This document shows, one piece after another, positions 5,925-63,509 of a stretch of 64,000 nt of DNA. The stretch is taken from the NCBI RefSeq assembly GCF_055900595.2, contig NZ_CM148325.1, one strand, 5' to 3'. A model generated the notes under the pieces. It had not been told where the DNA came from. It did no database searches and saw nothing but the letters and a program-made list of their open reading frames with translations. Positions within the stretch are counted from its first letter, which is position 1, and the number at the start of each line of letters is the position of its first letter. Both the position numbers and the translations under genes were made by a program.

Positions 5925-6563
5925 ATGCCCGGGCGCTTTGAACTAAAACCAACCCTGGAGAAAGTCTGGCACGCGCCGGACAATTTTCGCTTCATGGACC
6001 CGCTACCGCCGATGCATCGTCGGGGGATCATTATTGCCGCTATTGTATTGGTGGTCGGATTTCTACTCCCGTCTGATGATACGCCAAACGCGCCGGTGGT
6101 GACGCGTGAAGCACAGTTAGATATTCAGTCGCAATCACAACCGCCGACAGAAGAACAGCTGCGGGCGCAATTAGTCACACCACAAAATGATCCTGATCAG
6201 GTGGCTCCGGTCGCTCCAGAACCGATACAGGAAGGCCAACCGGAAGAGCAGCCGCAAACCTCGCAAGTGCAACCTTTCCAGCCAGATAGCGGAATTGACA
6301 ATCAATGGCGCTCTTATCGTGTCGAACCCGGTAAAACAATGGCGCAGCTGTTCCGCGACCACGGACTGCCCGCTACCGATGTCTATGCAATGGCGCAGGT
6401 AGAAGGCGCAGATAAGCCACTGAGTAATTTGCAAAATGGGCAGATGGTGAAAATCCGCCAGAACGCCAGCGGCGTGGTGACGGGCTTAACCATTGATACG
6501 GGAAATAATCAACAGGTCCTGTTTACCCGCCAGCCGGATGGCAGTTTTATTCGCGCGCGGTAG
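5925..6563 (+). CDS. ytfB: Cell-division-associated OapA-domain protein YtfB
   Basis: ATG at 5925 with AGGAGGA RBS (5913-5919); 212 aa; one TM helix then Pro/Gln-rich linker; in-frame upstream ATG at 5889 also possible. Confidence 0.85.
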
Positions 6564-7194
6564 ATGAAGGGTCAACCAGAAGCCAGCTAAGGATCGTCTC
6601 TTTGATGACCTTACGCCTGGCTTCCAGTGCCTGCGGTGAAACCATACTGATGTGATAAACCAGGCCAAGCGTATGTTGGTTGATCAAATAATATCCTCCA
6701 AGAGCAGCAATATTAATATTCACCTGCAACGGGTCGATATCTGGCTTAAAAATATTGCGCCGTTTGCCTTCAGCTAATAATGACTCCATTAACTGTAAGT
6801 GTGCGTGGTTAATTTCTAAAAGGCGCTGTGATTTTGCATAATGCACCCCTTTACTCTGGTTTTCACTATGCACAATTTTTAAAAACCAGGGGTTAGCAAT
6901 GTAATAATCCCAGGTGAAATCGATAATTTTCTCAATGGCTTTTTGTGGCGGAAGACCTGAGAAATCAAGGGATTTTTCTTTTTGCCGAATATCATTCCAG
7001 GTATATTCCAGCACTTCGATAAATAAATTTTCTTTATTACCAAAGTGATGATAAACCGTCTGTTTACTGCACTCCGCGGCCTTGACGATATTATCGACTC
7101 TGGCCCCTTCGTAACCATATTCGGCAAATTCATTAACCGCACATAACAACAGCTTTTCCTTCAGGCTTTGTACGTTGCTGGTATCAAGATACAT
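6547..7194 (-). CDS. TetR/AcrR-family transcriptional regulator, divergent from the downstream operon (possibly the full-length counterpart of the K-12 ytfA fragment)
   Basis: N-terminal HTH region [48 protein letters not shown] typical of TetR family; start set at ATG 7192-7194 (215 aa); upstream in-frame start at 7254 possible; low GC. Confidence 0.8.
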
Positions 7195-7316
7195 TCCGCT
7201 TCCCCACGTCTTCTTCGTGATGACTATCTTAACCCGATTTGTTAGAAGCTCCACTAAAATGGCTAAAAACTCGCAATTTCATCGGGTTATCAAATGCTCT
7301 GTGATCATTATCGCAT

Positions 7317-7338
7317 ATCAACCAACTAGATGGTTGAT
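7317..7338. promoter_or_regulatory. Candidate TetR operator: perfect 8-6-8 palindrome ATCAACCA-actaga-TGGTTGAT between the divergent regulator and SDR genes
   Basis: Palindrome read directly from sequence, about 70 nt upstream of the SDR start codon and 120 nt upstream of the TetR gene start. Confidence 0.5.
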
Positions 7339-7405
7339 CTTTCTTGCCACACATTGCAAGCTAATCGTCACTTAAGGAAATAATATTCAAAAAGAGGGTT
7401 ATTGT

Positions 7406-8197
7406 ATGAAGTCAACACGTCCTGTTGCTGTCATCACTGGAGCCGCACGTGGTATTGGAAAGGGCTGTGCACTGGAACTTGCGCGTGGCGGATTTAATCT
7501 GCTGATTAATGATCGTCCGGATGCCGACAGCGTAGAAAAATTACATGCCACACAACAAGAATGTCTGGCGGAAGGCGTGGAAGTGATTTGCTTCCCTGCT
7601 GATGTTGGCGATCTCTCCCTTCATGAAGAGATGCTCGACGCGGCGCAAAACCAGTGGGGACGTCTGGACTGTCTACTCAACAACGCAGGCATTTCAGTGA
7701 AAAAACGCGGTGACCTCCTCGACCTCGAACCAGACAGCTTCGACCAAAACATTGCCATTAACACCCGTGCGCCGTTCTTCCTTGCTCAGGCATTCAGTAA
7801 GCGATTACTGGCACAGCCGAAACCGGAAGCAGAACTGCCGCACCGCTCGATTATTTTTGTCAGTTCCATAAACGCCATCATGCTGGCGATGAATCGCGGC
7901 GAATATACCATTGCCAAAACTGCCGTCTCCGCCGCAGCTCGCCTGTTTGCCGCTCGCCTTTGCAATGAACAAATTGGCGTTTATGAAGTGCGCCCTGGCC
8001 TAATCAAAACCGATATGACCATTCCGGCAACGGCTTATTACGACGAACTGATTGCTAAGGGGTTAGTGCCGTGGGGACGTTGGGGTTATCCGGCTGATAT
8101 TGCCTCAACGGTCCGCGCGATGGCGGAAGGCAAACTGATTTACACCTGTGGTCAGGCGGTCGCCATCGACGGCGGCTTAAGTATGCCGCGCTTCTGA
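7406..8197 (+). CDS. Short-chain dehydrogenase/reductase (SDR) family oxidoreductase
   Basis: 263 aa; TGAARGIG cofactor-binding motif, NNAG, and catalytic Ser...YxxxK (YTIAK); RBS GAGGG. Confidence 0.85.
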   Translation: MKSTRPVAVITGAARGIGKGCALELARGGFNLLINDRPDADSVEKLHATQQECLAEGVEVICFPADVGDLSLHEEMLDAAQNQWGRLDCLLNNAGISVKKRGDLLDLEPDSFDQNIAINTRAPFFLAQAFSKRLLAQPKPEAELPHRSIIFVSSINAIMLAMNRGEYTIAKTAVSAAARLFAARLCNEQIGVYEVRPGLIKTDMTIPATAYYDELIAKGLVPWGRWGYPADIASTVRAMAEGKLIYTCGQAVAIDGGLSMPRF

Positions 8198-8206
8198 GGC
8201 TGAATC

Positions 8207-9049
8207 ATGAGAGATCTGTTACAACGCCCGGATTTATTCAGTATCAATACTGCGACACTGGGCTATAAAACACCGCTACCTGCCATTATTGATGCCTGCG
8301 CCGCACGCGGTATTGGCGCGATTGCCCCCTGGCGCAGGGAGTTACAGGGTGAAGATCTCCAACAAATCGCCCGCCAGCTTGCTGCCAGTAACATGAGCGT
8401 TTCCGGTTTGTGCCGTAGCACCTATTACACCGCGCCGACGCTGACGGAACGCAAACTGGCGATTGATGATAACCGCCGGGCGCTGGACGACGCCGCTGTA
8501 CTAAACGCCGCCTGTTATATGCAGGTGGTTGGCGGTCTGCCAATGGGAACAAAAGATCTGTACGAAGCGCGGGAACAAGTGAAACAAGGGATTCGCCAGT
8601 TGCTGCCACATTCGAAAGATGTCGGCGTGCCAATTGCGCTGGAGCCGCTGCACCCGATGACAGCTGCCGATCGCTCTTGCCTGTGCACGTTACGTCAGGC
8701 GCTGGACTGGTGTGATGAACTCGATCCCGATGGGGAGTTTGGCCTCGGCGTGGCGGTAGATGTCTACCACGTTTGGTGGGATCCGGATCTCGCCAGTCAG
8801 ATCCTGCGTGCCGGAAAACGCATCCTCGCGTTTCATGTTTCCGACTGGCTGGTGCCAACCACCGATTTAGTCAATGACCGGGGAATGCCGGGAGATGGCG
8901 TAATCAATATTCCGTCTATTCGTCGCCAGGTAGAAAATGCCGGATTTAACGGTGCTGTGGAACTGGAAATTTTCTCACCGTACTGGTGGCAGCAAGATAT
9001 TAACAGCACGTTGGATATTAGCGTCGATCGCATCGCGCATTATTGCTAA
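8207..9049 (+). CDS. Sugar phosphate isomerase/epimerase-like (xylose isomerase-like TIM barrel) enzyme
   Basis: 280 aa; family assignment from overall sequence character (judged by eye, less certain than neighbours); 9-nt gap after the SDR gene. Confidence 0.6.
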   Translation: MRDLLQRPDLFSINTATLGYKTPLPAIIDACAARGIGAIAPWRRELQGEDLQQIARQLAASNMSVSGLCRSTYYTAPTLTERKLAIDDNRRALDDAAVLNAACYMQVVGGLPMGTKDLYEAREQVKQGIRQLLPHSKDVGVPIALEPLHPMTAADRSCLCTLRQALDWCDELDPDGEFGLGVAVDVYHVWWDPDLASQILRAGKRILAFHVSDWLVPTTDLVNDRGMPGDGVINIPSIRRQVENAGFNGAVELEIFSPYWWQQDINSTLDISVDRIAHYC

Positions 9050-9052
9050 GGA

Positions 9053-9835
9053 ATGATCATGAGTGACCAACCCGTTCTGTTCAGCAGAGCGGCGGCTTCC
9101 TGCCGCCTGACATTGAACCGTGAAGATAAATGTCATGCTATTAATGAAGAAATGATCGAATCTCTCGACCATTATTTAAATGAAATTGAAAACGACACCA
9201 CATTACGATTAGTCGAATTAACGGCAACCGGCGATAAATTCTTTTGTGCGGGCGGCGATATTAAATCGTGGTCGGCCTATTCGCCATTAGATATGGGCAG
9301 AAAATGGATTAAACGCGGCAATGACGTTTTTAATCGCCTGCGCAACTTACCCCAATTAACGGTTGCGAATCTCAACGGTCATACCATCGGCGGCGGTATT
9401 GAACTTGCCTTGTGCTGCGATATTCGTATTGCCCGCCCCAGTGCGAAATTCTCTAATCCGGAAGTAATGCTCGGCATGGTGCCTGGCTGGATGGGCATTG
9501 AACGCGTGCTTAATCAGGTCGGTCCGGTGGTCGGTCGCCAGATGCTGATGCTGGGTAAACGCCTGACGGCGCAGGAAGCTCAGGCGGCGAATTTAATTGA
9601 TGAAGTGGTAGAAAAAGAACAGGTGGAAAGCTGGATGGCGAATCAGTTAGCGCAGCTGGAAAAATGCGGTCCGGTGGCGCTCGCACATATCAAGCAACTG
9701 ATTCTGGCTCTAGAAAATAAACATGCTGATTACCCGCACCAGTTACTGGCTGGATTAATGTCCGCCACTCAGGATTGCCAGCAGGCGACGCGCGCATTTG
9801 CCGAAAAAAGTAGCGTGAGCTTCCAAAATCAATAA
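9053..9835 (+). CDS. Enoyl-CoA hydratase/isomerase (crotonase) family protein
   Basis: 260 aa; FCAGGDIKSW and GHTIGGGIELALCCDIRIA crotonase signature segments; 3-nt gap after the upstream gene. Confidence 0.85.
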   Translation: MIMSDQPVLFSRAAASCRLTLNREDKCHAINEEMIESLDHYLNEIENDTTLRLVELTATGDKFFCAGGDIKSWSAYSPLDMGRKWIKRGNDVFNRLRNLPQLTVANLNGHTIGGGIELALCCDIRIARPSAKFSNPEVMLGMVPGWMGIERVLNQVGPVVGRQMLMLGKRLTAQEAQAANLIDEVVEKEQVESWMANQLAQLEKCGPVALAHIKQLILALENKHADYPHQLLAGLMSATQDCQQATRAFAEKSSVSFQNQ

Positions 9836-9844
9836 GGAAATTGT

Positions 9845-11386
9845 ATGCGTAAGATAACAACCGCCGAGACACTGGCGGCGCAAATTCAGGACGGCGCAAC
9901 CATTGCCATTAGCGGTAATGGCGGCGGCATGGTGGAAGCGGACCATATTCTGGCTGCTATTGAAGCGCGTTTCCTGCAAACCGGACACCCGCGCGATCTG
10001 ACATTAATCCACTCACTGGGCATTGGCGATCGCGACTGCAAAGGCACTAACCGCTTCGCTCATGCAGAGATGCTCAAACGCATCATTGCCGGACATTTTA
10101 CCTGGTCGCCCAAGATGCAGGATCTGGTGAAAAACAATGCTATTGAAGCCTACTGCTTCCCTGGTGGCGTAATTCAGGCACTGCTGCGGGAGATCGGTGC
10201 CGGACGTCCAGGGCTTTTTACCCACGTTGGGCTGGGATCGTTTGTTGATCCGCGCAACGGCGGCGGTAAGTCGAACGCTAGCAGCACTGAGGATCTGGTA
10301 GAACTGATTGAAATCGACGGTGAAACCAAACTTCGTTATCGCCCCTTCAAAGTGGACTACGCGATTTTGCGTGGCACTTATGCCGATCCGCGTGGCAACG
10401 TCAGCCTCGAAGAAGAGGCGATTGATATGGATAGCTATTCCATGGCGCTGGCAGCACACAACAGCGGCGGCAAAGTGTTCGTACAGGTGCGCGATGTGCT
10501 GGAAGCTGGTGCCATTGAACCACGCCGGGTCAAATTACCGGGCATTCTGGTTGATGGCATCGTTGAACACCGCGAACAACCGCAAACCTATCTTGGCGGT
10601 TACGACCTGACCATCAGCGGTCAGCATCGCCGTCTAAGTTCTAACGACGCAATTGAACTGGTTAGTCATCCGGTGCGCCGCCTGATTGCCCGTCGGGCAG
10701 CACGCGAACTGGTGGCTGGCGCTTCAACCAACTTTGGCTTTGGCATTCCCGGCGGCATTCCTGGGGTTGCACTGCGCGAAGGCGTGCCTTATCAAAGTTT
10801 ATGGCTGAGCGTAGAACAGGGTGTACATAACGGCATGATGCTGGATGATGCTCTGTTCGGCTGCGCCCGCAACGCCGATGCCATTATTCCATCACTCGAT
10901 CAATTCGAATTCTACAGTGGCGGAGGGATCGATATCACCTTCCTCGGCATGGGAGAGATGGATCAGTACGGTAACGTCAACGTCTCCCATCTCAATGGCA
11001 ATCTCATTGGCCCCGGCGGATTTCTCGAAATTGCGCAAAACGCCCGTAAAGTGGTGTTCTGCGGCACGTTCGACGCCAAAGGTAGCACGATTGATGTAAC
11101 ACCAGATGGCTTGCATATCGCCCAGTCAGGTCAAATCCCTAAACTGGTTACCCAGGTGGAAAAAATCACTTTTAGCGCCGCCTACGCACAGCAAAGCGGT
11201 CAGGAAGTGTTGTATATCACTGAACGTGCAGTATTCCAGTTAACAGCAGAAGGCGTTGAATTAATTGAAATCGCACCAGGTGTGGAGATTGAGCGCGACA
11301 TTCTGCCGCATATGGCCTTCCGTCCAATTATCAATCAGCCACGCCTGATGGAAAGTAGCCTGTTTACGCCGATGGAGGATGCATGA
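9845..11386 (+). CDS. Family-I CoA-transferase (fused alpha/beta, YdiF / propionate-CoA-transferase-like)
   Basis: 513 aa; N-terminus TAETLAAQIQDGATIAISGNGGGM and size match acyl-CoA:acetate/3-ketoacid CoA-transferases; RBS AAGGA. Confidence 0.75.
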   Translation: MRKITTAETLAAQIQDGATIAISGNGGGMVEADHILAAIEARFLQTGHPRDLTLIHSLGIGDRDCKGTNRFAHAEMLKRIIAGHFTWSPKMQDLVKNNAIEAYCFPGGVIQALLREIGAGRPGLFTHVGLGSFVDPRNGGGKSNASSTEDLVELIEIDGETKLRYRPFKVDYAILRGTYADPRGNVSLEEEAIDMDSYSMALAAHNSGGKVFVQVRDVLEAGAIEPRRVKLPGILVDGIVEHREQPQTYLGGYDLTISGQHRRLSSNDAIELVSHPVRRLIARRAARELVAGASTNFGFGIPGGIPGVALREGVPYQSLWLSVEQGVHNGMMLDDALFGCARNADAIIPSLDQFEFYSGGGIDITFLGMGEMDQYGNVNVSHLNGNLIGPGGFLEIAQNARKVVFCGTFDAKGSTIDVTPDGLHIAQSGQIPKLVTQVEKITFSAAYAQQSGQEVLYITERAVFQLTAEGVELIEIAPGVEIERDILPHMAFRPIINQPRLMESSLFTPMEDA

Positions 11387-13455
11387 GTCAGCTTGATGAC
11401 ACCCTCCTTGATGCGCTGACGCACGTCACTTTCCCGAAGGGTTTTGCACAGGCAGAACCCGCATGGGTTGTCACGGTAGACGGTGTTGATTACCCACTCT
11501 GGCAAACAGATGCCCTGGTAGTCGGCAGTGGTGCAGCCGGGCTGCGTGCAGCTGTGGAACTTAAGCGCCGCCAGCAAAATGTGCTGATCGCCACCGCCGG
11601 GTTATATATGGGGACATCGGCATGTTCTGGTTCCGATAAACAGACGCTGTTTACCGCCGCTACCGCGGGCAACGGCGATAACTTCGCCAAACTGGCAGAG
11701 GCACTGGCGAGCGGCGGCGCAATGGATCACGATACCGCTTATGTTGAAGCGGTTGGTTCCCTGCACACTCTTGGCGGGTTGCAATATCTTGGTCTGGAAT
11801 TACCGGAAGATCGCTATGGCGCAATTCTTCGTTATCAAACCGACCATGACGAAGCCGGGCGAGCAACCTCGTGTGGGCCGCGGACCTCAAGGTTAATGGT
11901 GAAAGTACTGCTGGAAGAAGTACAGCGTCTCGCCATTCCAGTGTTGACCAGTGCAACAGTAATTAAACTGCTGCATCAGCGTGACGAAAACGGTGAAGAC
12001 CGCGTGGCGGGGGCAATCCTCGCGACCGGTCATCGTGCCCATAACCCATGGGGGCTGGCAATTGTGACTGCGCCCAATGTGGTACTGGCAACAGGAGGGC
12101 CTGGCGAGCTTTATCGTGACAGTGTGTACCCACACAAATGTTTCGGCTCGCTGGGGCTGGCGCTGGAAGAAGGTCTGACGTTAACGAATCTGACCGAAAG
12201 CCAGTTTGGTATAGGCACGCCGCGCAGCACCTTTCCGTGGAATTTATCCGGGACTTATGTACAGGTGATCCCATACATCTATTCGGTGGATGCCGGGGGC
12301 AACGAGTATAACTTCCTCGCAGATTACTATCGCACCACCCAGGAGCTGGCTTCAAACATCTTCCGTAAAGGCTATCAGTGGCCGTTTCACGCCACACGAG
12401 TGATGGATTTTGGCTCCAGCTTGTTAGATATGGCAGTAGCGCAAGAGCAGCAATCAGGACGTCAGGTATTTATGGATTTCAATCGCAATCCTGAACCTGT
12501 GCCGGGTGACCTGCCGTTCTCATTAGATCGACTGGACGACGACGTTCGCGCGTATCTGGAAAATAACGACGCTCTGGCACCATCGCCCATCGAACGACTG
12601 CAACGAATGAATCCGCTGTCTATCTCGCTGTATAAGATGCACGGTTACGATCTCACCACGCAGCCATTGCAGTTTGCCATGAATAATCAGCATATGAATG
12701 GCGGCATTGAAGTGGATATCTGGGGGCAAACCTCCCTGTCCGGCTGTTTCGCCGTGGGGGAAGTTGCTGGCACACACGGCGTCACTCGCCCTGGTGGTGC
12801 GGCATTGAATGCCGGGCAGGTTTTTGCTGTTCGTCTGGCACGTTTTATTGGTTGCACGCAAAAACGTAATATTGATGGAGATATAGCACAGCTGGTAGCT
12901 CCGGCACTGGCTTCTATAAGAGAGATCATTACTCAGGCGCACGATAACGGGACCGGGATGCCGTTGTCGGTTGTGAGGGAAAAAATTCAGGCACGAATGT
13001 CTGACCATGCGGGATTTATTTGTCATGCCGATAAAGTCCGACGCGCCACTCGTGATGCCCTGCTATTGAACGAATTTGTGCAACGGCATGGATTGGCAAT
13101 CAAACATGTGGGTGAAGTTGCCGAGCTGTTTATGTGGCGGCATATGGCGCTGACTTCTGCCGCGGTATTAACACAATTAACGCATTATATTGATGCTGGT
13201 GGTGGTAGCCGTGGGGCGCGTATGGTTATTGATCCACAAGGCAAATGCCTACCACAAACTCGTCGCGGCGCAAAAGAAGAATGGCGTTTTCGCTCTGAAC
13301 TCGCTGAAGACAAAAATCACAAATTAACAATTCAATATTCGCAAGGTTCTTTTATTACCGAAGTAAAGTCTTTACGTATGCAACCGTGTATTAACGGTAT
13401 TTACTTTGAAAAAAACTGGCCAGACTTTTTAAAGGGAGACATTTACACACAGTAA
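11383..13455 (+). CDS. FAD-dependent oxidoreductase of the fumarate reductase/succinate dehydrogenase flavoprotein superfamily (soluble, stand-alone)
   Basis: 690 aa; ALVVGSGAAGLRAAVEL dinucleotide-binding motif after a ~45-aa N-terminal extension; C-terminal GEVAGTHGVTRPGGAALNAGQVFA resembles the FrdA/SdhA HGANRLGxNSL segment; start overlaps the CoA-transferase stop (ATGA). Confidence 0.8.
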   Translation: MSQLDDTLLDALTHVTFPKGFAQAEPAWVVTVDGVDYPLWQTDALVVGSGAAGLRAAVELKRRQQNVLIATAGLYMGTSACSGSDKQTLFTAATAGNGDNFAKLAEALASGGAMDHDTAYVEAVGSLHTLGGLQYLGLELPEDRYGAILRYQTDHDEAGRATSCGPRTSRLMVKVLLEEVQRLAIPVLTSATVIKLLHQRDENGEDRVAGAILATGHRAHNPWGLAIVTAPNVVLATGGPGELYRDSVYPHKCFGSLGLALEEGLTLTNLTESQFGIGTPRSTFPWNLSGTYVQVIPYIYSVDAGGNEYNFLADYYRTTQELASNIFRKGYQWPFHATRVMDFGSSLLDMAVAQEQQSGRQVFMDFNRNPEPVPGDLPFSLDRLDDDVRAYLENNDALAPSPIERLQRMNPLSISLYKMHGYDLTTQPLQFAMNNQHMNGGIEVDIWGQTSLSGCFAVGEVAGTHGVTRPGGAALNAGQVFAVRLARFIGCTQKRNIDGDIAQLVAPALASIREIITQAHDNGTGMPLSVVREKIQARMSDHAGFICHADKVRRATRDALLLNEFVQRHGLAIKHVGEVAELFMWRHMALTSAAVLTQLTHYIDAGGGSRGARMVIDPQGKCLPQTRRGAKEEWRFRSELAEDKNHKLTIQYSQGSFITEVKSLRMQPCINGIYFEKNWPDFLKGDIYTQ

Positions 13456-13547
13456 TTTTCAATATTTACTCTGTACCTGATTTTTATTGCCTATTACATG
13501 GAAATACCAACAACCAGGGTTTATTAATATAATTAAAAGGTTTAAAA

Positions 13548-14825
13548 ATGAATAAAATAAAGAATTATCGATGGCATATGATTGCCCTCGTATGCTTTAT
13601 CACTGTAATCAATTATCTGGACAGAACGGCGTTAGGTATTGCGGCTCCAACGATTATGGAGACAACCGGAATAACCAAAGAACAATATTCATGGATTGTC
13701 AGTGCATTCCAGTTGGCCTATACATTGGGGCAACCGGTAATGGGCTTCTTTATTGATACCGTGGGTCTGAAGTTAAGTTTTGCGATATGTGCCGCAATCT
13801 GGGGCCTGGCGACAATGGGGCATGCCTTGACAGGAACATGGTCAGGTCTGGCATTTATGCGCGCCCTGATGGGTTTCAGCGAAGCATCGGCAATTCCTGC
13901 GGGTGTAAAAACCGCATCAACATGGTTCCCGGCAAAAGAGCGTGGCGTGGCGACAGGTGTTTTCAATATGGGCACCTCACTCGGCGCGATGCTTGCTCCA
14001 CCGTTGATTGCCTGGTGCATTATGTTTCATAGCTGGCAATTTGCGTTTATTGTCTCAGGTAGCCTTGCTTTACTCGCGGCTTTATTTTGGTTCTTTTGTT
14101 ATAAAGATCCAAAAGATGCTAAACGCCTTTCTGATGAAGAGCGCCACTATATTGAGTCTGGGCAAGAACAGCATCTTAAAACAGATAAGAAAGAAAAAAC
14201 GTCAATCAAGCATATCCTCAGCCAACGTAATTTCTGGGGGATTGGCATCGCGCGTTTTCTCGCTGACCCGGCATGGGGAACCATTAACTTCTGGGTACCG
14301 ATTTTCTTCGTCGAAACGCTGCATTTTAGCCTGAAAGAAATTGCCATGTTCGTCTGGCTGCCTTTCCTGCTGGGCGATCTCGGCTGTTTAGCCAGTGGTT
14401 TTGTCGCGAAGTTCTTCCACGATCGCGGCGTGAGTTTAATTAACTCACGAAGAATTACCTTCACTATTGCAGCCGTCATTATGATGACGATTGGTCTGGT
14501 GAGTATTGTCGAAAATCCCTACATCGCCGTATTACTGATTAGCATTGGCGCATTCTCGCATCAATGTCTTTCTACTGTTGCAGCAACTCTGGGCGGTGAC
14601 CTATTCAAAAAAGACGAAGTAGCTACCGCTGTGGGTATGGCAGGAGCCTGTGCATGGAGCGGTCAGTTGATTTTCAACCTGTTTATCGGGGCATTCGTTC
14701 ACATTATTGGCTTCGCGCCGTTCTTTATTGCCCTGGCTTTCTTTGACATTATTGGTGCTATTGCGTTGTGGACGCTTATCAAAGTTAAAGATGAAGAACC
14801 ACAAGTACAGTTAGCTACCCACTAA
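13548..14825 (+). CDS. MFS transporter, anion:cation symporter (ACS) subfamily-like (ExuT/DgoT/GudP-type)
   Basis: 425 aa, about 12 TM segments; N-terminal RWHMIALVCFITVINYLDRTALGIAAP is characteristic of ACS-family organic-anion permeases. Confidence 0.8.
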   Translation: MNKIKNYRWHMIALVCFITVINYLDRTALGIAAPTIMETTGITKEQYSWIVSAFQLAYTLGQPVMGFFIDTVGLKLSFAICAAIWGLATMGHALTGTWSGLAFMRALMGFSEASAIPAGVKTASTWFPAKERGVATGVFNMGTSLGAMLAPPLIAWCIMFHSWQFAFIVSGSLALLAALFWFFCYKDPKDAKRLSDEERHYIESGQEQHLKTDKKEKTSIKHILSQRNFWGIGIARFLADPAWGTINFWVPIFFVETLHFSLKEIAMFVWLPFLLGDLGCLASGFVAKFFHDRGVSLINSRRITFTIAAVIMMTIGLVSIVENPYIAVLLISIGAFSHQCLSTVAATLGGDLFKKDEVATAVGMAGACAWSGQLIFNLFIGAFVHIIGFAPFFIALAFFDIIGAIALWTLIKVKDEEPQVQLATH

Positions 14826-14836
14826 TTATTTTAAAT

Positions 14837-14868
14837 AAAAACGCTATAATTGAGGTTATGGCGTTTTT
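14837..14868 (+). terminator. Intrinsic terminator after the MFS transporter gene
   Basis: Hairpin aaaacgctataa/ttatggcgtttt (one mismatch) with short loop, followed by a T-run, 12 nt past the stop codon. Confidence 0.55.
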
Positions 14869-15094
14869 AAAGAAGCTTGAGTTATCGAACCTAGCTTACC
14901 AACGCGTTGTCAGTCATCTCCCCCCTCCCTGGTGCATCGTTATATCCGTGATGAGCGATTTTTGATATTAATATCTTTCACCATCCGCTATTTTCACCAC
15001 TTCAGAAAACAAACTTATTTTTATTAATATCAATTCTTTTTCTTTGAACATTCAACTGCGATATTTGTAAAAATATTAAACAGGCAACAATAAA

Positions 15095-15889
15095 ATGACA
15101 TTACCAACAACTATTTATTCATTCCCCGCATATTTACCTCGTTTTTCGTCCACCGACAAACCAGCAAAACTAAAATTTCATCAATACGCACGCGCTACAT
15201 TACTGTCAAATCGTGGAAGAGATCATAATTGCGATGGCAGACGTACTGTTGAGATCCACAAACTAGATCTCTCAGACTGGCAAGCATTCAATAAGCTAGC
15301 GACGAGGTGTAATACTTACGATGGAATAACAATGAATGGTGATAATTCTTTTGGATGGAACCATGAAGCTACATTAGATAATATTCACGCCCAGAAATAC
15401 AATAAAGCTTACGCGGGTGCGCGGTTAACCGCAGAACTGAAATATTTATTGCAAGATGTCGAATCCTTCGAACCCAACAGTAAATACACAATACACGAAG
15501 TGGTTTTGGGACCTGGTTATGGTACTCCAGACTATACCGGCCAAACGATAGGATACGTTGTAACCCTTCCTGCCCAAATGCCTAATTGCTGGTCATCTGA
15601 ACTACCAACAATCGATCTTTATATCGACCAACTTCGCACTGTTACAGGCGTTTCTAATGCCCTCGGATTCATCATTGCTGCATTGCTAAACGCGTATTCT
15701 GATTTACCCCATGATTTGAAAATTGGTCTACGTTCCTTATCAAATTCAGCCGCAATCTACTCGGGTTTAGGTTTCGAGCGAGTGCCGCAGGACCGAGACA
15801 TAAGGAGTGATCGTATGCATCTAACGCCAGCAAACCATCCTGACTTATGGACACAAGAGAATGGTGAATGGATCTACTTGCGAAATTAA
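15095..15889 (+). CDS. yjfZ: Uncharacterised protein YjfZ
   Basis: 264-aa ORF, AT-rich, preceded by an AT-rich 270-bp intergenic region; size and position next to rplI match K-12 yjfZ. Confidence 0.75.
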   Translation: MTLPTTIYSFPAYLPRFSSTDKPAKLKFHQYARATLLSNRGRDHNCDGRRTVEIHKLDLSDWQAFNKLATRCNTYDGITMNGDNSFGWNHEATLDNIHAQKYNKAYAGARLTAELKYLLQDVESFEPNSKYTIHEVVLGPGYGTPDYTGQTIGYVVTLPAQMPNCWSSELPTIDLYIDQLRTVTGVSNALGFIIAALLNAYSDLPHDLKIGLRSLSNSAAIYSGLGFERVPQDRDIRSDRMHLTPANHPDLWTQENGEWIYLRN

Positions 15890-61700: not shown

Positions 61701-63509
61701 GTGCAAACCTTTCAAGCCGATCTTGCCATTGTAGGCGCCGGTGGCGCGGGATTACGTGCTGCAATTGCTGCCGCGCAGGCAAATCCAAATGCAAAAATCG
61801 CACTAATCTCAAAAGTATACCCTATGCGTAGCCATACCGTTGCTGCAGAAGGGGGCTCCGCCGCTGTCGCGCAGGATCATGACAGCTTCGAATATCACTT
61901 TCACGATACAGTAGCGGGTGGCGACTGGTTGTGTGAGCAGGATGTCGTGGATTATTTCGTCCACCACTGCCCAACCGAAATGACCCAACTGGAACTGTGG
62001 GGATGCCCATGGAGCCGTCGCCCGGATGGTAGCGTCAACGTACGTCGCTTCGGCGGCATGAAAATCGAGCGTACCTGGTTCGCCGCCGATAAGACCGGCT
62101 TCCATATGCTGCACACGCTGTTCCAGACCTCTCTGCAATTCCCGCAGATCCAGCGTTTTGACGAGCACTTCGTACTGGATATTCTGGTTGATGATGGTCA
62201 TGTTCGCGGCCTGGTGGCAATGAACATGATGGAAGGCACGCTGGTGCAGATCCGCGCTAACGCGGTCGTTATGGCTACCGGCGGTGCGGGTCGCGTTTAT
62301 CGTTACAACACCAACGGCGGTATCGTTACCGGTGACGGTATGGGTATGGCGCTAAGCCACGGCGTTCCGCTGCGTGACATGGAATTCGTTCAGTATCACC
62401 CAACCGGTCTGCCAGGTTCCGGTATCTTGATGACCGAAGGCTGCCGCGGTGAAGGCGGTATTCTGGTCAACAAAAATGGCTACCGTTATCTGCAAGATTA
62501 CGGCATGGGCCCGGAAACTCCGCTGGGCGAGCCGAAAAACAAATATATGGAACTGGGTCCACGCGACAAAGTTTCTCAGGCCTTCTGGCACGAATGGCGT
62601 AAAGGCAACACCATCTCCACGCCGCGTGGCGATGTGGTTTATCTCGACCTGCGTCACCTCGGCGAGAAAAAACTGCATGAACGTCTGCCGTTCATCTGCG
62701 AACTGGCGAAAGCGTACGTTGGCGTCGATCCGGTTAAAGAACCGATTCCAGTACGTCCGACCGCACACTACACCATGGGCGGTATCGAAACCGATCAGAA
62801 CTGTGAAACCCGCATTAAAGGTCTGTTCGCCGTGGGTGAATGTTCCTCTGTTGGTCTGCACGGTGCAAACCGTCTGGGCTCCAACTCGCTGGCGGAACTG
62901 GTGGTCTTCGGTCGTCTGGCCGGTGAACAAGCGACAGAACGTGCAGCAACTGCCGGTAATGGCAACGAAGCGGCAATTGAAGCGCAGGCTGCTGGCGTTG
63001 AACAACGTCTGAAAGATCTGGTTAACCAGGATGGCGGCGAAAACTGGGCGAAGATCCGCGACGAAATGGGCCTGGCAATGGAAGAAGGTTGCGGTATCTA
63101 CCGTACGCCGGAACTGATGCAGAAAACCATCGACAAGCTGGCTGAGCTGCAGGAACGCTTCAAGCGCGTGCGCATCACCGACACCTCCAGCGTGTTCAAC
63201 ACCGACCTGCTCTACACCATTGAACTGGGTCACGGTCTGAACGTTGCTGAATGTATGGCGCACTCCGCAATGGCACGTAAAGAGTCCCGCGGCGCGCACC
63301 AGCGTCTGGACGAAGGTTGCACCGAGCGTGACGACGTCAACTTCCTCAAACACACCCTCGCCTTCCGCGATGCTGATGGCACTACTCGCCTGGAGTACAG
63401 CGACGTGAAGATTACTACGCTGCCGCCAGCTAAACGCGTTTACGGTGGCGAAGCGGATGCAGCCGATAAGGCGGAAGCAGCCAATAAGAAGGAGAAGGCG
63501 AATGGCTGA
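61701..63509 (+). CDS. frdA: Fumarate reductase flavoprotein subunit
   Basis: 602-aa ORF from GTG 61701; [22 protein letters not shown] motif; HTVAAEGG covalent-FAD His region. Confidence 0.97.

Follow-up and report, generated by a model that had tools for sequence, protein, structure and literature searches.

A crotonase and a fused CoA-transferase in an Escherichia genomic island: a possible CoA-dependent step in the catabolism of a hexuronate-like sugar acid

Which acid is handled by a crotonase and a coenzyme A (CoA)-transferase that are encoded side by side in an Escherichia chromosome, and to what pathway do the two enzymes belong? The two genes lie in a 64,000-nucleotide stretch of contig NZ_CM148325.1 (RefSeq assembly GCF_055900595.2; hereinafter, the window), within an island of seven genes that consists of a six-gene operon and a divergently transcribed tetR gene. 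An initial annotation took the pair to imply a CoA-thioester intermediate and narrowed the substrates to small carboxylic acids of fermentative or anaerobic metabolism. In our analysis, the thioester holds up, whereas a hexuronate-like sugar acid should take the place of small fermentation acids as the class of substrate. We tentatively propose, with somewhat less than even confidence, that the crotonase and the transferase carry out the CoA-dependent step of a TetR-controlled catabolic operon for such an acid.

Both open reading frames (ORFs) are present on the plus strand where the initial annotation had placed them, 9 nt apart: the crotonase stop codon, TAA at 9833-9835, precedes the transferase ATG at 9845, with an AAGGA motif overlapping the stop. 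In a Pfam scan of the island proteins, the single-chain, 513-aa transferase matches CoA_trans (PF01144) at 5.2e-23. Its residues 4-244 match the model of subunit A of the 3-oxoacid CoA-transferases (TIGR02429, 8.7e-18) and residues 278-483 that of subunit B (TIGR02428, 1.7e-10), so that the protein appears to be a fusion of the alpha and beta chains. The closest solved structure is that of E. coli YdiF (2ahu, 9.2e-114), which aligns end to end, with 39% identity to the K-12 protein across 508 residues. Glu324 of the transferase, in the E-x-G motif (SVEQG), aligns with Glu333 of YdiF (TVETG) and is present in 27/27 relatives from other genomes; the GPGGF loop aligns with GTGGF of YdiF, the GGF part being kept in all 27 as well. 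In the crystal structures that Rangarajan et al. are said to have described in 2005, YdiF Glu333 is the catalytic residue and bears the CoA thioester. No Pfam family besides CoA_trans matches the transferase at E<=1e-3, the acetyl-CoA hydrolase families included. Judged by these matches, the transferase is of the YdiF/propionate-CoA-transferase (Pct) type of family I, not of the acetyl-CoA hydrolase type, and on both the subfamily and the catalytic glutamate the initial annotation is borne out.

The crotonase matches ECH_1 (PF00378) at 1.5e-45, and a sequence search of the PDB returned 3-hydroxypropionyl-CoA dehydratase (5zai, 1.5e-40) as the closest solved structure. The two motifs that had been cited for this protein are found at residues 64-73 (FCAGGDIKSW) and 113-127 (GGGIELALCCDIRIA). 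Both oxyanion-hole segments, FCAGGD and GGG, are kept in 12/12 orthologues, across which Glu117 (GGGIE) and Glu137 (NPEV) are invariant. By motif position, we take these residues to be the counterparts of Glu144 and Glu164 of rat enoyl-CoA hydratase, a matching that the alignment with 5zai also supports. Because both oxyanion-hole segments and both catalytic glutamates are kept, the protein is predicted to be a competent hydratase/dehydratase, not a decarboxylase, isomerase or hydrolase offshoot of the family. The ORF contains two in-frame ATGs, 6 nt apart (9053 and 9059), and since the Shine-Dalgarno motif AAGGA directly abuts the first, translation likely starts at 9059, yielding a 258-aa protein that matches RefSeq.

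The operon encodes, in this order, a short-chain dehydrogenase/reductase (SDR), a triosephosphate isomerase (TIM) barrel protein, the crotonase, the CoA-transferase, a flavoprotein and a major facilitator superfamily (MFS) transporter. Its genes are tightly packed, with 9-nt spacers and an ATGA overlap of the transferase stop with the flavoprotein start. Among the island genes of E. coli and Salmonella, Pfam and annotation reveal no CoA ligase, thiolase or thioesterase. The CoA-thioester intermediate is accordingly well supported by homology, by the intact catalytic residues and by the absence of a ligase from the operon. With a transferase present, and neither a ligase nor a thiolase or thioesterase, the island probably forms the thioester only transiently and recycles its CoA.

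The transporters point to the class of acid. The last position of the operon is occupied in E. coli by two unrelated alleles. In ~1654 genomes, it holds the MFS transporter, followed by yjfZ (window 13548-15889); this transporter, a paralogue of ExuT, shows 28% identity to DgoT and 24% to GudP. In ~1446 genomes, including ATCC 8739 (L038:9187-12031), the MFS gene and yjfZ are replaced by a tripartite ATP-independent periplasmic (TRAP) system of the QMP type. The binding protein of the latter (L038:11060-12031) matches 4ovr, 4x8r, 4n8y, 4n15, 4n91 and 4mij/4mhf at 1e-72 to 1e-56, its other best solved relatives in the same E range being 4p1l, 4xfe and 4x04. Glucuronate is bound in 4x8r and galacturonate in 4n8y (PMC11668362); 4n91 is a glucuronate binder, 4mhf binds glucuronate/galacturonate, and 4n15 was the modelling template for the glucuronate-binding STM3169 (PMC7660916). 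The Arg/Arg/Asn triad of this clade is present in the TRAP binding protein, in the motifs GARS, VRVQ and AEN. Because two independent carrier families both have hexuronate-type nearest relatives, we infer that the operon serves a hexuronate or a closely related compound rather than a short-chain fatty acid, and this agreement is the strongest evidence available on the substrate.

The small carboxylic acid of the initial annotation is out of keeping with the ExuT-like MFS transporter, the TRAP system of the hexuronate clade, and the sugar-isomerase-like TIM barrel and SDR partners. The hexuronate-type context likewise argues against fermentative or anaerobic short-chain acid metabolism, and the transferase alone does not mark anaerobiosis because family I CoA-transferases serve aerobic pathways too, among them PcaIJ, ScoAB and AtoDA. 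A system for an acid of the acetoacetate, propionate, butyrate or crotonate type, in which YdiF-like transfer from acetyl-CoA is joined to hydration by the crotonase, therefore appears very unlikely to us. It would agree with the C3-C4 substrates of the nearest characterised relatives (YdiF, 3-hydroxypropionyl-CoA dehydratase and clostridial crotonase) and with the weak matches of the TetR protein to Bacillus FadR and AcuR, but both transporter alleles are of hexuronate type by homology, the sugar-isomerase-like TIM barrel gene and the LacI and KdgK contexts of related clusters do not suit a short-chain acid, and the identity to YdiF is only 39%, K-12 having YdiF at another locus.

Table 1 Features of the island, with positions in the window
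Feature	Position	Strand	Size and matches
TetR-family regulator, divergent	6547..7254	-	longest ORF 235 aa; TetR_N 2.4e-13, TetR_C_29 3.5e-30
Perfect palindrome 8+8, tetR/SDR intergenic region	7317..7338		ATCAACCA-ACTAGA-TGGTTGAT
SDR, PRK12745 type	7406..8197	+	263 aa; adh_short_C2 4.5e-42; NF009386 1.7e-126
Xylose-isomerase-like TIM barrel, sugar isomerase/epimerase type	8207..9049	+	280 aa; AP_endonuc_2 2.4e-37
Crotonase-family enoyl-CoA hydratase/dehydratase	9053..9835	+	260-aa ORF; Pfam ECH_1
Single-chain (fused alpha/beta) family I CoA-transferase, YdiF/Pct type	9845..11386	+	513 aa; predicted catalytic Glu324
Flavoprotein, SdhA/FrdA/NadB superfamily, distinct subfamily	11383..13455	+	690 aa; FAD_binding_2 4.1e-26
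MFS transporter, ACS family, ExuT paralogue	13548..14825	+	47% full-length identity to K-12 ExuT (1e-151)

The adjacency of the crotonase and transferase genes is more than chance because the pair recurs in the same order across genera, including distant bacteria. It is present in 3140/5426 complete E. coli genomes (58%), ATCC 8739 among them, and its order is unchanged in Escherichia, Klebsiella, Salmonella and Entomohabitans. The whole cluster occupies the same chromosomal site in Salmonella enterica and is also found in Klebsiella spallanzanii, E. albertii, E. whittamii and Entomohabitans. Beyond these, the pair occurs in Pseudovibrio, Accumulibacter and Bryobacterales/Acidobacteria metagenome-assembled genomes (MAGs), with 37-42% identity for the crotonase and 61-65% for the transferase.

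Within the transferase clade at 55-65% identity, the partners remain the same while the arrangements vary (the contexts of high-GC loci were read from tblastn results and Pfam scans). Three Acidobacteria MAGs contain an SDR-crotonase-transferase array followed by a GMC oxidoreductase, and in a fourth, the same array follows a TetR regulator. Pseudovibrio flavus has the order TetR-SDR-TIM-crotonase-transferase, the flavoprotein being encoded 6 kb away next to a LacI regulator, whereas in Accumulibacter, crotonase and transferase are accompanied by LacI and the flavoprotein. In Pseudomonas, the cluster encodes an ACS-type MFS transporter, the TIM barrel, a DUF993 protein, the SDR, a short-chain acyl-CoA dehydrogenase, the transferase and TetR, and includes neither a crotonase nor an FrdA-like protein. 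The best model for this acyl-CoA dehydrogenase is acryloyl-CoA reductase AcrC, and cyclohexane-carbonyl-CoA dehydrogenase models match it as well. A similar acyl-CoA dehydrogenase is encoded in Actinomadura, together with TRAP, LacI, the transferase and an SDR. The neighbours of more distant transferases (44-46% identity) are unrelated.

The DUF993 gene of Pseudomonas (L020:6715-7887; also L033) stands between those for the TIM barrel and the SDR, a place taken by the crotonase gene in enterobacteria. Its product matches the Pfam family at 9.2e-176 and no NCBIfam model, and we found no paper on DUF993 in the literature searched.

The place of ydiF in K-12 raises the prospect of a carbocyclic hydroxy acid of the quinate/shikimate type that would be processed through CoA esters, as in the conversion of shikimate to cyclohexanecarboxyl-CoA. 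Quinate and shikimate, polyhydroxy-carboxylates with six-membered rings, resemble pyranuronates, the known 3-dehydroshikimate dehydratases share the TIM-barrel fold, the Pseudomonas acyl-CoA dehydrogenase matches the cyclohexane-carbonyl-CoA dehydrogenase models, and in K-12, ydiF directly follows ydiB-aroD, which encode quinate/shikimate dehydrogenase and dehydroquinase, and precedes the acyl-CoA dehydrogenase gene ydiO (L036, K-12 1773789-1778347). We nevertheless hold such a substrate to be highly improbable: no NCBIfam model for dehydroshikimate dehydratase or shikimate dehydrogenase was matched, the adjacency of a KdgK-like kinase in a related cluster (see below) does not fit, and the known shikimate carriers fall in other families. 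As a separate observation, the ydiF-ydiO arrangement of K-12 recalls the Pseudomonas and Actinomadura variants that combine the transferase with an acyl-CoA dehydrogenase.

The relatives of the flavoprotein are embedded in a partly different set of neighbourhoods. One cluster has the order TetR-SDR-flavoprotein-TIM-TRAP, with a TRAP binding protein of the hexuronate clade and without transferase or crotonase. In another, a fusion of an Old Yellow Enzyme (OYE) domain with the flavoprotein (P0206, 1084 aa) is encoded between the TIM barrel and the SDR, with a DHDPS-family gene ~8 kb upstream on the contig, and a third combines a GH4 glycosidase with the flavoprotein and an OYE protein. A fourth (L055) encodes a Gfo/Idh/MocA-like dehydrogenase and the flavoprotein, directly adjoining a KdgK-like kinase (39% identity to E. 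coli KdgK; NF052444, 4.7e-72), and LacI. The island thus consists of two modules, SDR/TIM/flavoprotein and crotonase/transferase, with the SDR common to both, and the former is tied to genes for sugar acids and 2-keto-3-deoxy acids.

The flavoprotein itself belongs to a family of 419 clusters (E<=1e-30), and its top NCBIfam matches fall far below the model cut-offs. Sequence searches also yielded no closely related solved structure for it. We aligned it with the FrdA protein that is encoded in the same window (61701-63509) and with NadB. In FrdA numbering, the flavoprotein retains Arg390 and lacks the covalent-FAD His44, His232, Thr244/Glu245 and the proton donor Arg287, the counterpart of His355 being offset by one position. 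With these catalytic residues missing, we rejected its assignment as a fumarate reductase, an aspartate oxidase or a canonical enoate reductase. Across 99 family members, 94 positions are at least 93% conserved, many of them aromatic or polar and located in motifs foreign to FrdA and NadB (the family motifs are GSDKQT, RYQTDHD, FPWNLSGTY, FRKGYQWPF and NQHMNGG), and there are extra N- and C-terminal segments. In other taxa, an acyl-CoA dehydrogenase takes the place of the flavoprotein, which suggests the alpha,beta bond as the flavoprotein's site of action; the pairing of this dehydrogenase, the best model of which is AcrC, with the transferase is in line with such a site.

Some E. coli records contain a single product with both the CoA_trans and the FAD_binding_2 domains (P0062, 1078 aa; P0089, 1043 aa). 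At the ATGA overlap, a one-base change would fuse the transferase and flavoprotein genes, and the joined records may be either real fusions or frameshift or annotation artefacts.

The island could also be a module resembling beta-oxidation. Its flavoprotein would desaturate the alpha,beta bond of the imported acid, be it a deoxy sugar acid or some other, before the crotonase would hydrate the enoyl-CoA and the SDR would oxidise the 3-hydroxyacyl-CoA; the transferase, acting as a 3-ketoacid CoA-transferase, would free the 3-keto acid and load the next substrate. The set of flavoprotein, crotonase, SDR and CoA-transferase mirrors the order of beta-oxidation chemistry, an acyl-CoA dehydrogenase can stand in for the flavoprotein, the transferase goes by the name 'acyl CoA:acetate/3-ketoacid CoA transferase' at NCBI, and the SDR model NF009386 bears the name 3-ketoacyl reductase. 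Such a module is in our opinion unlikely, given that the island has no thiolase or hydrolase to end the cycle, that the TIM barrel would be without a role, that hexuronates are already beta-hydroxylated so that desaturation would be needless, and that FrdA-family enzymes work on free acids, not on CoA esters.

A reductive dehydroxylation that serves as an anoxic electron sink, as known for carnitine, phenyllactate and lactate, comes closest to what the initial annotation had in mind. Here, the transferase and the crotonase would dehydrate a beta-hydroxy acid, and the FrdA-like flavoprotein would reduce the resulting enoate or enoyl-CoA. The order of crotonase, transferase and flavoprotein, with translational coupling, resembles CaiD/CaiB/CaiA, acryloyl-CoA reductase is the best model for the Pseudomonas counterpart, and relatives of the flavoprotein are fused to or adjoin OYE-type FMN reductase domains, such as are also carried by NADH:fumarate and NADH:acrylate reductases. 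On the other hand, the flavoprotein lacks the Arg/His set of the known enoate reductases of its superfamily, the E. coli island encodes no electron-donor module, and the adjacency of KdgK in a related cluster speaks for assimilation of the carbon and not for a reduced end product, all of which makes an electron sink quite unlikely.

We return to the catabolism of a hexuronate-like acid, for which, from the gene identities, catalytic residues, operon layout, transporter homology and conservation described above, we infer a substrate, an order of steps and a role for the flavoprotein as follows. The acid would be taken up by whichever carrier the allele encodes, the ExuT-like MFS protein or the hexuronate-type TRAP system. 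The YdiF-type transferase would then move CoA from a donor thioester to the carboxylate of the substrate, via a Glu324-CoA intermediate, and the crotonase would exploit the acidified alpha-proton, eliminating or adding a beta-substituent. In a hexuronate, C5 is the alpha carbon to the carboxylate, and the beta-hydroxyl is located at C4. From a uronate C6 thioester, the crotonase would thus remove the C4 hydroxyl, yielding a 4,5-ene equivalent to 5-keto-4-deoxyuronate. The transferase would pass the CoA on to the next substrate molecule, so that catalytic CoA would suffice and no ATP would be spent; CoA is recycled in this manner in CaiB/CaiD, in AcuN/AcuK, and by Pct with lactoyl-CoA dehydratase. 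The TIM-barrel isomerase and the SDR would convert the keto-deoxy sugar acid to 2-keto-3-deoxygluconate (KDG), as KduI and KduD do, and the chromosomal KdgK/Eda route would finish the degradation. The translationally coupled FrdA-like flavoprotein would act, in either direction, on the C=C/C-C bond beside the carboxyl. Such a scheme would explain why SDR, crotonase and transferase are conserved as a trio, as well as the link to KdgK.

Several observations weigh against it. The characterised YdiF/Pct enzymes use short-chain acyl groups, and the literature that we searched, which left most subscription journals outside, mentions neither a sugar-acid CoA thioester nor a uronyl-CoA. The flavoprotein is left unexplained because a single dehydration and a single reduction suffice to turn a hexuronate into KDG. 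The flavoprotein/TIM/SDR/TRAP module occurs without the transferase and the crotonase, so that the specificity of the transporter may be tied to this module, with the CoA pair possibly acting on a later product. In the TRAP binding protein, Gln appears to replace a sugar-contacting Glu of the glucuronate-binding proteins, and the ligand may therefore be an analogue. None of kdgK, eda, uxaC, uxaA and kduI lies beside any transferase locus, the KdgK link being seen beside a flavoprotein homologue only. Finally, E. coli already handles glucuronate and galacturonate by the UxaC route. As for the island, neither Pfam nor annotation reveals a uronate isomerase, a mannonate/altronate oxidoreductase or a dehydratase (UxaC, UxuB/UxaB, UxuA/UxaA), and tblastn with UxaC and UxaA yielded no match in any related locus.

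A more specific version of the scheme, which we consider doubtful, starts from a uronic acid beyond the reach of the UxaC pathway and proceeds by way of a CoA thioester, with formation of the C6 thioester, elimination at C4, action of the flavoprotein on the 4,5-bond, and subsequent degradation through KDG and the Entner-Doudoroff route. Candidate substrates refractory to UxaC would be, for example, 4-O-methyl-glucuronate, iduronate and mannuronate/guluronate.

The remaining proteins of the operon are less informative. The SDR is the one enzyme common to nearly all cluster variants (the exceptions include the Accumulibacter locus L009); it shows 29% identity to KduD, and its closest solved structures are structural-genomics SDRs without an assigned function. 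Assigned functions are also missing for the close structures of the TIM barrel, 3qc0/3ju2 (SMc04130; ~9e-86) and 7vpf (1.7e-60). We rejected its identification with a named isomerase or dehydratase, the matches to IolO, fructoselysine 3-epimerase, hydroxypyruvate isomerase and IolI being weak (1e-6).

The divergent regulator is annotated as a TetR/AcrR family regulator in locus L001, and the same regulator type is found with related clusters in other phyla. Its RefSeq homologues have 215 aa, a version that would end near 7194 in the window. The palindrome between tetR and the SDR gene, ATCAACCAACTAGATGGTTGAT, occurs once in the window and is kept with 0-3 changes in the Escherichia, Klebsiella, Entomohabitans and Salmonella loci; degenerate copies adjoin tetR in a Bryobacterales MAG (L015:6128-6149) and in a metagenomic contig (L043:372-393). 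It is a likely candidate operator for the TetR protein. At their 3' ends, tetR (minus strand) and ytfB (plus strand) overlap convergently by 17 nt (6547-6563).

The island lies between ytfB and yjfZ/rplI in a region (7000-15000) that is 95-98% identical to E. coli genomes, the window as a whole being Escherichia chromosome. It is missing from K-12, strains of which retain at this site only a TetR remnant. Other strains carry there an IS200/IS605 (IS609) tnpA plus TnpB, or a HipA toxin gene, and in some, ISEcp1-blaCTX-M-15 or ISCro1 is inserted within or beside the island. The ytfB-yjfZ site (window 6547-15095) is an insertion/deletion hotspot.

The island is common, being present in 58% of the complete E. 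coli genomes as well as in Salmonella, with homologues of the flavoprotein in these bacteria, the Klebsiella oxytoca group and Citrobacter, yet public names are generic throughout, for the exact island proteins, for their clusters and for 120 flavoprotein homologues. We found no study of the island in the full-text literature searched, where most subscription journals fell outside, and prior work is possible. If the inference from the transporters is true, the island would join sugar-acid catabolism to CoA-thioester chemistry, a link absent from that literature, and would for the first time open up the function of a large unassigned branch within the superfamily of fumarate-reductase flavoproteins. 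Should the uronyl-CoA route be true, it would be the first acyl-CoA pathway for a sugar acid and would provide a function for a flavoprotein family of >400 clusters. The island may bear on the use of host- or plant-derived uronates by gut- and plant-associated bacteria.

Compared with known systems, the transferase resembles YdiF (2ahu/2ahv/2ahw) and clostridial Pct in the fused alpha/beta build, the E-x-G glutamate and the GxGGF loop. It differs from YdiF in sequence, with 39% identity only, and in context: ydiF is found with ydiB-aroD, ydiO and electron-transfer flavoprotein (ETF) genes, whereas the island gene is accompanied by those for the crotonase, the TIM barrel, the SDR, the FrdA-like flavoprotein and a hexuronate-type transporter. 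The flavoprotein shares with FrdA, SdhA and NadB the FAD_binding_2 fold, the helical domain and Arg390, and departs from them in its own motifs, its extra terminal segments and the absence of their catalytic His/Arg set. With the enterobacterial hexuronate route (ExuT, UxaC, UxuAB/UxaAB, KduI/KduD, KdgK, Eda) and the STM3169 TRAP system, the island has in common an SDR of the general KduD type, its transporters are by homology an ExuT paralogue or a TRAP system of the glucuronate/galacturonate-binding clade, and a related cluster encodes a KdgK-like kinase, but its CoA chemistry and flavoprotein are without precedent in the uronate-catabolism literature searched. We also considered, and rejected, an equivalence to the deoxyribonate acyl-CoA cluster of Klebsiella michiganensis, which has a different gene set that includes a CoA synthetase, a hydroxyacyl-CoA dehydrogenase, a thiolase and a glycerate kinase (Price et al. 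2019, PMC6365646).

The closest likeness in design, judging from gene content, is to CaiB/CaiD/CaiA and AcuN/AcuK, where, as in the island, a CoA-transferase adjoins a (de)hydratase of the crotonase family, and neither a ligase nor a thioesterase is encoded; as in the Cai system, a flavoprotein for the alpha,beta bond appears to be encoded alongside. CaiB belongs to family III (CaiB/BaiF), whereas the island transferase belongs to family I, so that the island may work like the Cai system but is not a member of it. Furthermore, CaiA is an acyl-CoA dehydrogenase, and its counterpart in the island is FrdA/NadB-like; in the variants of Pseudomonas and Actinomadura, the partner is again an acyl-CoA dehydrogenase. 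The substrate class of the island, too, would differ from that of the Cai and Acu systems. Each of these enzyme families is well known, and what is new is the context, in which predicted hexuronate-type uptake is combined with CoA chemistry and an FrdA-like flavoprotein.

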